Assembly: GCF_054482525.1 (NCBI RefSeq)
Contig: NZ_CM137006.1
Length of the DNA stretch: 64,000 bases
Reading direction: 5' to 3' (one strand)
The notes below the pieces were generated by a model, which had not been told where the DNA came from, made no database searches, and was given only the letters and a program-made list of their open reading frames with translations. Position 1 is the first letter of the stretch; each line of letters opens with the position of its first letter. Of the stretch, positions 8,628-62,901 are shown piece by piece. The position numbers were made by a program, and so were the translations under genes.

Positions 8628-8635
8628 ACGTAATT

Positions 8636-8676
8636 GCCTGATGCGACGCACGAGTGTTACGCATGTCGCATCCGGC
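8636..8676. repeat. REP unit between convergent recD and argA
   Basis: GCCTGATGCGACGCACGAGTGTTACGCATGTCGCATCCGGC. Confidence 0.55.
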
Positions 8677-8688
8677 GATTTTCATCGC

Positions 8689-11579: not shown

Positions 11580-11656
<77 letters not shown>

Positions 11657-11688
11657 TCACCGTACTGCTTTATTTCATCAAATTTGAT

Positions 11689-11765
<77 letters not shown>

Positions 11766-11798
11766 TCACCGTACTGCTTTACTTCATCAAATTTTAAT

Positions 11799-11875
<77 letters not shown>

Positions 11876-13181: not shown

Positions 13182-13216
13182 TGTGATATTCTGTATGCCG
13201 TTTTTACGGATACGAC

Positions 13217-13245
13217 AGGGTGAGGGATAACCTCGCCCTTTTTAT
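13217..13245 (+). terminator. Putative mltA intrinsic terminator
   Basis: AGGGTGAGG-gataa-CCTCGCCCT hairpin followed by T-run. Confidence 0.55.
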
Positions 13246-13256
13246 TCTGAGGTGCT

Positions 13257-14068: not shown

Positions 14069-14104
14069 CAGGTCGGATGCGACGCGAACGTCTTATCCGA
14101 CCTG
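14069..14104. repeat. REP (repetitive extragenic palindrome) unit between convergent tcdA and csdE
   Basis: CAGGTCGGATGCGACGCGAACGTCTTATCCGACCTG palindrome. Confidence 0.6.
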
Positions 14105-14113
14105 GTTCTGTGC

Positions 14114-21631: not shown

Positions 21632-21648
21632 AATCGCTCCTGCAATAT

Positions 21649-21674
21649 AGCCGGATAACATTGCTTATCCGGCT
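21649..21674. repeat. REP-like perfect hairpin in fucI-fucK intergenic region
   Basis: AGCCGGATAA-cattgc-TTATCCGGCT; a second GC hairpin GCCCGGT...ACCGGGC lies at about 21695-21718. Confidence 0.55.
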
Positions 21675-21739
21675 AACCACTCTTGCTTGTTCAGGCCCGG
21701 TAGCCGGAGCGACCGGGCATCACATCAGGGAGTAATGTA

Positions 21740-27234: not shown

Positions 27235-27252
27235 ATGCGCTGATGTGATAAT

Positions 27253-27285
27253 GCCGGATGCGACGCTAGCCGCGTCTTATCCGGC
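27253..27285. repeat. REP unit (part of a BIME) between convergent fucO and xni
   Basis: GCCGGATGCGACGCTAGCCGCGTCTTATCCGGC; a partial second unit follows at about 27323-27335. Confidence 0.6.
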
Positions 27286-27338
27286 ATATAAGTGCATTAA
27301 ATTCAATGTGCTGATAATCGTTTGCATCCGGCACGTCG

Positions 27339-41140: not shown

Positions 41141-41164
41141 GAGTCTGATGCCAAACGCAAAATT

Positions 41165-41192
41165 GCCTGTTGCGCTACGTATCAGGCCTACA
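41165..41192. repeat. REP unit
   Basis: GCCTGTTGCGCTACGTATCAGGCCTACA. Confidence 0.55.
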
Positions 41193-41228
41193 TTATTTTT
41201 TTAATTCATTGAATTTAATTGGTGTTTA

Positions 41229-41260
41229 TGCCGAATAAGGCGTTAACGCCGCATCCGGCA
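41229..41260. repeat. REP unit
   Basis: TGCCGAATAAGGCGTTAACGCCGCATCCGGCA. Confidence 0.55.
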
Positions 41261-41334
41261 TAAACACAGGCACCTTGTCACCAGTCTGAAACCAGCGTCA
41301 TAAAAAGCCGATTGCTACTCGGCAAGACGGTCCA

Positions 41335-47731: not shown

Positions 47732-47740
47732 TCTTACATA

Positions 47741-47781
47741 GCTGGATATGGCGTCAGCCGTATCCAGCGATATCTTTTACT
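47741..47781 (+). terminator. Putative relA-distal hairpin / terminator
   Basis: GCTGGATA-12 nt loop-TATCCAGC followed by U-rich GATATCTTTT. Confidence 0.4.
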
Positions 47782-47826
47782 CGAAGGTATTACACCTGAC
47801 AGACCCGCAATTTTCAGGACAATTCA

Positions 47827-53765: not shown

Positions 53766-54039
53766 TTACACATTTATATGCGTTATAAATGGGTGGAACC
53801 TGTAAAGACTTCCACTCATTTATATTTTTTGTCGCCTCTGAAAACTCATCCATTTTGCCCATTCCGGACTAATCATTGTCATTCTCTACAAATTCTGTGG
53901 CGTTAATTTTTCTCTGGGGTGAAAATTATTGCGGTAAAGTTTGGTAGATTTTAGTCGGTATAGGATTACTTTAAATATTTAGCTTTTCAATCAATGAATT
54001 AAGTGCTCTTTAACATAATGGATGTGTTGTTTGTGTGAT

Positions 54040-54104
54040 ACTGTAAAGTTGGTAGATTGTGACTGGCTTAAAAAATCATTAATTAATAATAGGTTATGTT
54101 TAGA
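54040..54104 (+). promoter_or_regulatory. AT-rich CRISPR leader
   Basis: TTAATTAATAATAGGTTATGTTTAGA immediately precedes the first repeat. Confidence 0.5.
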
Positions 54105-54255
54105 GAGTTCCCCGCGCGAGCGGGGATAAACCGAAAACCACGACCTGGCGATCGGCGTGCTGGATGAGTTTCCCGCGCGAGCGGGGATAAACCGGATAGG
54201 TGTTACACATATGACCAGGCACTGGCGAGTTCCCCGCGTCAGCGGGGATAACCAT
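54105..54255 (+). CRISPR. Minimal type I-E CRISPR array: 3 repeats (last degenerate), 2 spacers of 32 bp
   Basis: Repeats GAGTTCCCCGCGCGAGCGGGGATAAACCG (54105-54133), GAGTTTCCCGCGCGAGCGGGGATAAACCG (54166-54194), degenerate GAGTTCCCCGCGTCAGCGGGGATAACC.. (54227-54255); spacers 54134-54165 and 54195-54226. Confidence 0.85.
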
Positions 54256-54268
54256 TCAGGTATGTTCA

Positions 54269-54292
54269 GGCCGGGCAGTTTCCCGCCCGGCC
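54269..54292. terminator. GC-rich hairpin between CRISPR array and ygcE stop
   Basis: GGCCGGGC-agtttccc-GCCCGGCC; no clear U-tract on either strand. Confidence 0.35.
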
Positions 54293-54300
54293 TTCCTCAC

Positions 54301-62755: not shown

Positions 62756-62803
62756 CTTGCTGCCGGATGATCCTGCCTACGGTTCTGGCCTGGGGACTTG
62801 TAA

Positions 62804-62836
62804 GCCTGATAAGACGCGTCAAGCGTCGCATCAGGC
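62804..62836. repeat. REP unit within a BIME between convergent ygcQ and ygcP
   Basis: GCCTGATAAGACGCGTCAAGCGTCGCATCAGGC; flanking partial units at about 62761-62782 and 62845-62871. Confidence 0.6.
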
Positions 62837-62901
62837 GCTGAATGTCGGATGTGGCGTGCAGCCTACAAATCACACAAATTCAATTCGTTACGATTATCCC
62901 G

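Follow-up and report, generated by a model that had tools for sequence, protein, structure and literature searches.

The DNA analysed here, a stretch of 64,000 nucleotides which we refer to as the window (NCBI RefSeq assembly GCF_054482525.1, contig NZ_CM137006.1), is a part of the Escherichia coli chromosome running from recC to ygcN. It is ~99.98–99.99% identical to strain PCN033 (NZ_CP006632.1), and shares ~96% identity with MG1655 over the ygc region. The gene map was obtained by moving the PCN033 RefSeq annotation to window coordinates, with every CDS checked by its start and stop codons, and it bore out the gene names used in the original prediction. Counting RNA genes, ten junctions in the window are convergent: recD/argA, amiC/tRNA-fMet, tcdA/csdE, ygdI/GcvB, rlmM/fucR, fucO/xni, gudD/barA, eno/ygcG, queE/ygcE and ygcQ/ygcP. 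REP-type palindromes had been predicted at five of these (recD/argA, tcdA/csdE, fucO/xni, gudD/barA and ygcQ/ygcP), together with a REP-like hairpin in the gap between fucI and fucK, and palindromes were found at each of the predicted positions, displaced by 1–5 nt (Table 1).

Distribution of REP-type elements over gene junctions

The statement that REPs mark most convergent junctions was too generous, as they are found at half of them (5/10), or at 4/10 under strict classification; at convergent junctions between two protein genes the figure is 5/8. The enrichment itself is real. When only gaps of at least 30 nt are counted, a REP-type element is present in five of the nine that are convergent, whereas the 29 that are divergent or co-directional have none (Fisher p = 2.5e-4), and the enrichment persists when recD/argA is left out (p = 1.7e-3) or when the fucI–fucK hairpin is counted as a REP (p = 1.4e-3).

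Four of the remaining convergent junctions (amiC/tRNA, ygdI/GcvB, rlmM/fucR and eno/ygcG) carry terminator-type hairpins instead of REPs. The bidirectional terminators at eno/ygcG and amiC were called from predicted folds, having been missed by the terminator scan because their A/T runs pair. The queE/ygcE junction carries a small CRISPR array and then a hairpin in place of a REP. This type I-E array consists of three 29-nt repeats and two 32-nt spacers, with an AT-rich leader on its upstream side and the GC-rich hairpin on its downstream side; PCN033, which is near-identical, continues beyond cysH directly into a hok/gef gene and iap, without cas genes, and the array may therefore be an orphan. 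Two further differences between strains were observed along the gene map: the relA–mazG gap spans 95 nt in the window, where mazEF is missing, compared with ~730 nt in MG1655, and the window carries three initiator tRNA-Met genes in tandem (metZWV), as does MG1655, the PCN033 assembly having only two, which creates a 109-nt offset against the window.

Table 1 Positions of the REP-type elements and other features of the window, with matches to the Escherichia albertii profiles.
Feature	Positions	Strand	Description	Profile match (nhmmer)
recD/argA, head-to-head palindrome	8635–8677	.	Two REP head halves, TGCCTGATGCGACGC...GTCGCATCCGGCG	
metZWV	11583–11875		Initiator tRNA-Met genes	
mltA–tcdA gap	13182–13256		Empty site, one hairpin	
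tcdA/csdE, single y-type REP	14070–14105	-	GGTCGGAT/ATCCGACC subclass; foot CCAG (14105), not GTAG	y, 14072–14103 (-), 21.9 bits, E = 6.2e-6
csdE 3' end	14091	-	Inside the REP	
fucI–fucK, linker-like 12-mer	21637–21648	-	ATATTGCAGGAG	
fucI–fucK, perfect 11-bp palindrome	21648–21675	.	TAGCCGGATAA/TTATCCGGCTA	
fucO/xni, full REP	27252–27288	-	y-type arms (CCGGAT), z2-type inner stem; no GTAG foot, TATA (27288)	z2-like, 27250–27290 (-), 32.3 bits, E = 3.6e-9
fucO/xni, L-like linker and REP fragment	27289–27333	+	AAATTCAAT at 27299–27307; head-half TGCATCCGGCA, 11 nt, at 27323–27333	
gudD/barA, z1 REP of BIME-1	41164–41191	-	GTAG foot intact (41188–41191)	z1, 41161–41193 (-), 27.2 bits, E = 1.3e-7
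gudD/barA, L linker of BIME-1, 35 nt	41192–41226	-	Core AAATTCAAT at 41208–41216 (-); IHF-like ATTCAATGAATTA at 41202–41214 (-)	
gudD/barA, y REP of BIME-1	41227–41260	+	Foot TTAT (41226)	y, 41227–41262 (+), 42.4 bits, E = 2.6e-12
relA–mazG gap	47732–47826		mazEF missing	
queE/ygcE gap	53766–54300		Contains the CRISPR array	
CRISPR array	54105–54255		Repeats at 54105–54133, 54166–54194 and 54227–54255	
ygcQ/ygcP gap	62756–62901			
ygcQ/ygcP, y-type REP relic 1	62761–62780	-	+ strand reads iREP, TGCCGGATG then ATCCTGCCTAC	
ygcQ/ygcP, intact z2 REP	62800–62837	+	GTAAGCCTGATAAGACGCGTCAAGCGTCGCATCAGGCG; foot GTAA (62800)	z2, 62798–62836 (+), 47.3 bits, E = 6.9e-14
ygcQ/ygcP, IS1397 site in z2 loop	62819–62822		TCAA target duplication; empty in the window strain	
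ygcQ/ygcP, y-type REP relic 2	62843–62866	-	TGTCGGATGTGGCGTG..CAGCCTAC; 3' arm lost	
ygcQ/ygcP, L-type (BIME-1) linker	62867–62897	+	Begins after CTAC tail; core AAATTCAAT at 62876–62884; IHF-like 13-mer ATTCAATTCGTTA at 62878–62890	

Classification and architecture of the elements

The palindromes were classified with two scans, using the y/z1/z2 nomenclature after Ton-Hoang 2012 (PMC3333891). The first was a blastn-short search with y, z1 and z2 consensuses, for which the best of 30 Markov shuffles scored 24 bits; the second was an nhmmer search with profiles derived from REPs of E. albertii, for which the maximum over 30 shuffles was 12.9 bits. The profile sequences came from a pattern scan in which REPs paired tail-to-tail were sought; most of its matches were chance ones in unrelated taxa, the real yield being BIMEs of E. 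albertii and Superficieibacter. At least 15 loci were recovered in E. albertii NBRC 107761, and the E. albertii matches listed supplied 18 BIME-1 copies and 26 y, 20 z1 and 5 z2 REPs. These agree with the consensuses of the first scan and also yield an L-linker consensus, AAAATCGTGCAAATTCAATATATTGCAG.

Five elements at four of the five junctions scored above all shuffles in both scans, with 34–44 bits against the consensuses and 21.9–47.3 bits against the profiles. The expectation that a consensus scan would classify the predicted palindromes as REPs held for these four junctions, but not for recD/argA or the fucI–fucK hairpin. Copy number divides the elements in the same places: in blastn searches of 5426 complete E. 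coli genomes, the ygcQ/ygcP z2 REP was found at 40 or more places in all 5426, the gudD/barA BIME-1 (as a whole query) at 40 or more, the fucO/xni element at no fewer than 38–40 and the tcdA/csdE REP at a median of 37, whilst recD/argA and fucI–fucK each had a median of one. REP/BIME-family elements are in this sense as typical of E. coli as had been stated, the four junctions matching consensus and profiles with queries of high copy number. An Rfam search of the window found CsrB, GcvB and three tRNAs and nothing else, Rfam having no family for REPs, and a half-site scan allowing 2–3 mismatches was rejected as too noisy (101 matches, 52 expected).

In predicted folds, four of the full REPs are hairpins with a dG of -18 to -26 kcal/mol on either strand and an internal loop at ATAAG/CGCAT, and the z1 unit at gudD/barA folds more weakly (-7 to -11 kcal/mol). 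The GTAG foot is kept in one of the five, this z1 unit. Two of the four altered feet, those of the ygcQ/ygcP z2 REP and the gudD/barA y REP, read GTAG in MG1655, and both y relics at ygcQ/ygcP keep the tetranucleotide as CTAC. TnpA-REP requires the GTAG foot and the stem mismatch (PMC3333891), and with a foot left in only one of five full REPs, most are probably immobile fossils in the window strain. The tnpA-REP gene lies outside the window.

Hairpins at the ends of convergent genes stand exactly where terminators are expected, and other convergent junctions in the window do have terminator hairpins, so we considered whether the elements are ordinary, locus-specific Rho-independent terminators which resemble REPs by chance. 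This is very improbable: a T-run follows none of the five full REPs on either strand, profiles derived from another species match them with E = 1e-5 to 1e-14, and queries from four junctions recur between 37 and at least 40 times per genome. The one palindrome with some terminator character is that at recD/argA, which is followed by ATTTTCAT and gave a weak match in the terminator scan.

The gap between ygcQ and ygcP opens on the left with a y relic. Separated from it by 19 nt is a z2 REP, and 5 nt further on lies another y relic, followed by a linker of the L type. The z2 REP is intact, scores 44 bits to the z2 consensus and has 14-nt arms that are 86% complementary (dG -21.8 kcal/mol). The first relic retains its head and CTAC tail and has lost ~15 nt of the middle, a deletion shared with MG1655 and three other strains; it has no match in the y/z1/z2 profile scan and no stable fold (dG -3.5 kcal/mol, z +0.9). 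The second relic, which stands head-to-head with the z2 REP, reaches only 8.4 bits with the y profile (E = 0.1) and likewise has no stable fold, the two relics together spanning -3.5 to -6.2 kcal/mol with z about 0. Since neither can fold, a single hairpin in the gap would be able to act. Together with the linker, the second relic matches positions 2–74 of the BIME-1 profile (E = 2.9e-4). The same architecture is present in MG1655 and the three other strains, and the junction is uninterrupted in 4806 of 5425 genomes. Judged by its motifs, the gap is an old, fixed, species-wide and decayed atypical BIME with y, z2 and L components.

In 285 genomes, for example MLI108K3, the loop of this z2 REP is occupied by a 1432-bp element of the IS1397 family with a TCAA target duplication, and in two more (287 in total) the element is in the opposite orientation, which implies at least two independent insertions. 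IS1397 is specific for palindromic units (PMC1525189), and its placement in the z2 loop matches that specificity. The synthetic junction query used for the element also matched IS1397 beside similar z2 REPs elsewhere.

At gudD/barA, the region 41158–41261 matches positions 2–108 of the 109-nt BIME-1 alignment (71.4 bits, E = 2.5e-21), with a z1 REP (34 bits to the consensus), an L linker and a y REP (42.5 bits; dG -18.6/-23.9 kcal/mol), and is by this match a complete BIME-1. Its architecture is retained in 5202 of 5424 genomes. The fucO/xni REP (38.3 bits to the consensus, dG -25 kcal/mol) is followed by an L-like linker and a fragment of a second unit, and the element matches BIME-1 profile positions 2–62 (E = 1.9e-6), which identifies it as a decayed BIME-1. 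The tcdA/csdE element is, from its sequence, a lone y REP (34 bits to the consensus; dG -24 to -25 kcal/mol).

Next to the latter, a canonical BIME-1 is present in MG1655 between mltA and tcdA as a 163-bp insertion (y iREP, 34-nt L linker, z1 REP) with one copy of the mltA terminator hairpin on each side, that is, with the hairpin duplicated; the window has the empty site with a single hairpin. This absence, the occurrence of IS1397 at ygcQ/ygcP and the existence of long and short fucO/xni alleles, described below, support the proposal that the elements are useful as strain markers.

Symmetric single-copy palindromes

The palindrome at recD/argA had been predicted to be of REP type, and it is certainly present, but it fails the full-length scans and is single-copy. 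It gives half-site matches only, with 24 bits against the consensus (equal to the null maximum), 15.4 bits against the profile and E = 2.4 against the BIME-1 profile, and its arms are symmetrised, without the REP stem mismatch (dG -22 kcal/mol). Its origin can be read from strain N96, in which the junction spans 237 nt and contains two longer copies of the palindrome, recognisable as z2 iREPs (24.0 and 19.7 bits), flanking a duplicated 3' fragment of argA and a canonical y REP (44.6 bits). The expansion in N96 apparently arose by REP-associated duplication. The short form is absent from at most ~4% of genomes. As N96 carries the undeleted form, the comparison supports the reading that a BIME at recD/argA lost its interior by deletion and collapsed to the present 43-nt head-to-head palindrome.

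A similar form occurs as an allele at fucO/xni. The long allele, present in the window and in 1501 of 5317 genomes, has a 104-nt gap with the REP, the L linker and the 11-nt head fragment; the short allele has a 54-nt gap with a head-to-head palindrome and is found in K-12 MG1655, an O157:H7 strain and others.

The hairpin between fucI and fucK was described as REP-like, and this is accurate for its arms, both of which resemble the tail half of a y REP (2 mismatches in 14), but it fails the REP scan and is single-copy. It is a perfect palindrome without GTAG foot or stem mismatch (dG -16.6 kcal/mol), it has no significant match to the REP or BIME-1 profiles, and its identity is 99% or higher in 4910 of 5424 genomes. 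Immediately 3' of it on the fuc sense strand is the 12-mer ATATTGCAGGAG, which includes the fucK Shine-Dalgarno sequence just before the start codon; the same 12 nt are found in the mltA/tcdA BIME-1 of MG1655, as a part of its L linker, and are otherwise absent from the window.

Two origins can be considered for this hairpin. It could be a locus-specific element of the operon RNA, of an origin unrelated to REPs, which would serve processing, stability or translational coupling for fucK. Its single, near-invariant copy, its perfect symmetry and its want of a significant profile match are all in keeping with this, and we hold it to be a serious possibility, falling a little short of an even chance. 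The similarity of both arms to the y-REP tail half speaks against it, as do the adjoining 12-mer shared with a BIME-1 linker, and the recD/argA palindrome and short fucO/xni allele, which show that BIMEs collapse into symmetric palindromes. The other origin is suggested by this last comparison: the symmetric single-copy palindromes at recD/argA, in the short fucO/xni allele and at fucI–fucK may represent a form in which the decay of BIMEs repeatedly ends. A deletion between two inverted REPs would join their outer arms, head to head at recD/argA and in the short fucO/xni allele and tail to tail at fucI–fucK, and the fused palindrome, having lost the GTAG foot and the stem mismatch, would be invisible both to TnpA-REP and to consensus scans. 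It would then persist as a stable, locus-specific RNA hairpin, and at fucI–fucK a remnant of the L linker would now provide the fucK ribosome-binding site. As a general rule for all three loci we think this rather unlikely; collapse has support at recD/argA, and for the short fucO/xni allele it is plausible, whilst at fucI–fucK it is speculative. It is the one mildly new idea to come from the analysis.

Possible functions and relation to known systems

The original prediction proposed the elements as IHF and gyrase sites and as likely mRNA stabilisers. For IHF, the 64 kb contain exactly three copies of the 9-mer AAATTCAAT, the L-consensus core, at fucO/xni, gudD/barA and ygcQ/ygcP, in each case 10–11 nt past a y-type tail and inside a 12/13 match to the IHF consensus WATCAANNNNTTR. 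The exact consensus is present in no linker, and its six matches elsewhere in the window are not above chance. The BIME-1 L linker frequently has an IHF site (PMC3333891), and a literature search with the L-linker sequence returned nothing relevant. The proposal is thus upheld as far as L-linker motifs in a fixed register at three junctions go, though without an exact consensus, and these linkers are candidate IHF sites. For gyrase it has no support here: cleavage mapped by Topo-seq is concentrated in BIME-2, mainly in y-type units (PMC6379681), and the window has no intact BIME-2, the y units beside the ygcQ/ygcP z2 REP being dead relics.

REP hairpins resist exonucleases and have been linked to Rho-dependent 3' ends (PMC6061677). 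The primary 3' end of csdE was located by Term-seq at position 2945008 of MG1655 (Adams et al. 2021, PMC7815308). Aligned to the window, this end falls inside the tcdA/csdE REP, 23 nt past the csdE stop codon, in the 5' arm of the hairpin and not 3' of it, so that the classic geometry of a protected end is not demonstrated there. The stabiliser proposal has indirect support, from the literature and from this one end inside a REP. The csdE end is antisense to the 3' region of tcdA, and the convergent transcripts overlap over the REP. The Adams 2021 Term-seq tables list no 3' ends within the other four junctions, probably because the operons were poorly expressed under the conditions used.

A further consideration is how close the stop codons lie: the tcdA/csdE REP is separated from that of tcdA by 6 nt and from that of csdE by 8 nt. 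Liang, Rudd and Deutscher reportedly found in 2015 that terminating ribosomes can be stalled by a REP if it lies within ~15 nt of the stop codon, and the recD, argA, tcdA and csdE stops, at 6–11 nt from a hairpin, are all within that distance.

We consider it very probable that the elements belong to the E. coli REP (palindromic unit)/BIME family, either as members or as products of its decay, taken jointly with the following working model, which follows the literature on the family. Intact units would be transcribed at the 3' ends of convergent genes and would fold, in either orientation, into hairpins with a dG of -18 to -26 kcal/mol. These would impede 3'-to-5' exonucleases and thereby define or stabilise the 3' ends of mRNAs, above all where termination is Rho-dependent. 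As DNA, the L linkers would bind IHF and the REP loops would be targets of IS1397. REPs would accumulate at convergent junctions because insertions there break no promoter.

An alternative is that the elements have no selected function and are selfish or neutral repeats, surviving at convergent junctions because no other intergenic space tolerates their insertion and decay without harm. Decay is indeed heavy in the window (two dead y relics, collapsed BIMEs and the GTAG foot lost in 4/5 REPs), and polymorphism carries no obvious cost, as in the fucO/xni alleles, the mltA/tcdA BIME-1 and the IS1397 insertions in 287 genomes. The wide retention of the ygcQ/ygcP and gudD/barA architectures (4806/5425 and 5202/5424 genomes) argues the other way, as do published reports that REPs protect mRNA and bind proteins (PMC6061677, PMC3333891). 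We regard absence of function as possible, at clearly less than an even chance; the neutral-repeat and functional views are not mutually exclusive and can both hold.

Beyond annotation these results have little importance, and their practical output is a classification of each element in the region. A plain consensus scan overlooks several of the 'REPs', which proved to be collapsed BIMEs or dead relics. The long and short fucO/xni alleles, and IS1397 at the ygcQ/ygcP z2 REP, provide two clean strain markers, and, as a caution, gyrase-site claims are best kept for intact BIME-2. Descriptions of REP/BIME elements, of their bias towards gene 3' ends, of their links to IHF and gyrase and of the use that IS1397 makes of them go back to the 1980s–1990s. 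E. coli REPs, or palindromic units, and their y, z1 and z2 classes are credited to Stern (1984) and to Gilson and Bachellier. Like other E. coli REPs, all five full units are extragenic, high-copy, imperfect palindromes of 30–40 nt with the ATAAG/CGCAT mismatch and a class-specific sequence; unlike typical REPs, four of the five no longer have a GTAG foot in the window strain, and the fucO/xni unit (27252–27288) combines arms of y type with an inner stem of z2 type.

BIME-1 (RIP/RIB) consists of y and z1 units placed tail-to-tail around a ~35-nt L linker with an IHF site. The gudD/barA element corresponds to it from end to end, and fucO/xni and ygcQ/ygcP correspond in their y and L parts, with the 9-mer core in the same register. 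They depart from it in that the second REP at fucO/xni is an 11-nt head fragment, whereas ygcQ/ygcP has no z1 after the L linker and an internally deleted y unit. In its alternation of y, z2 and y units (head-to-head at 5 nt, tail-to-tail at 19 nt) the ygcQ/ygcP gap instead resembles an atypical BIME or BIME-2, and with its L motif it is a chimera as defined for atypical BIMEs. It differs from BIME-2, in which intact y and z2 units are joined by a short linker, usually in tandem copies, in being a single unit with both y relics dead. Its z2 loop corresponds to the targets of IS1397, an IS3-family element specific for palindromic-unit loops, in carrying the element in 287 genomes, the site being empty in the window strain.

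A further comparison was provided by the pattern scan. The enterobacterium Superficieibacter electus BP-1 has many tail-to-tail REP pairs in which a GTAGGCC foot is common and the stems differ (CCGGGTGGCG...), with linkers containing ATATCAA/TTGATAT motifs and some tandem arrays of up to six copies; from these sequence features it is a parallel BIME system. The elements of the window itself are of kinds already known, several of them decayed, and their identification as REP/BIME elements, right in substance, is routine.
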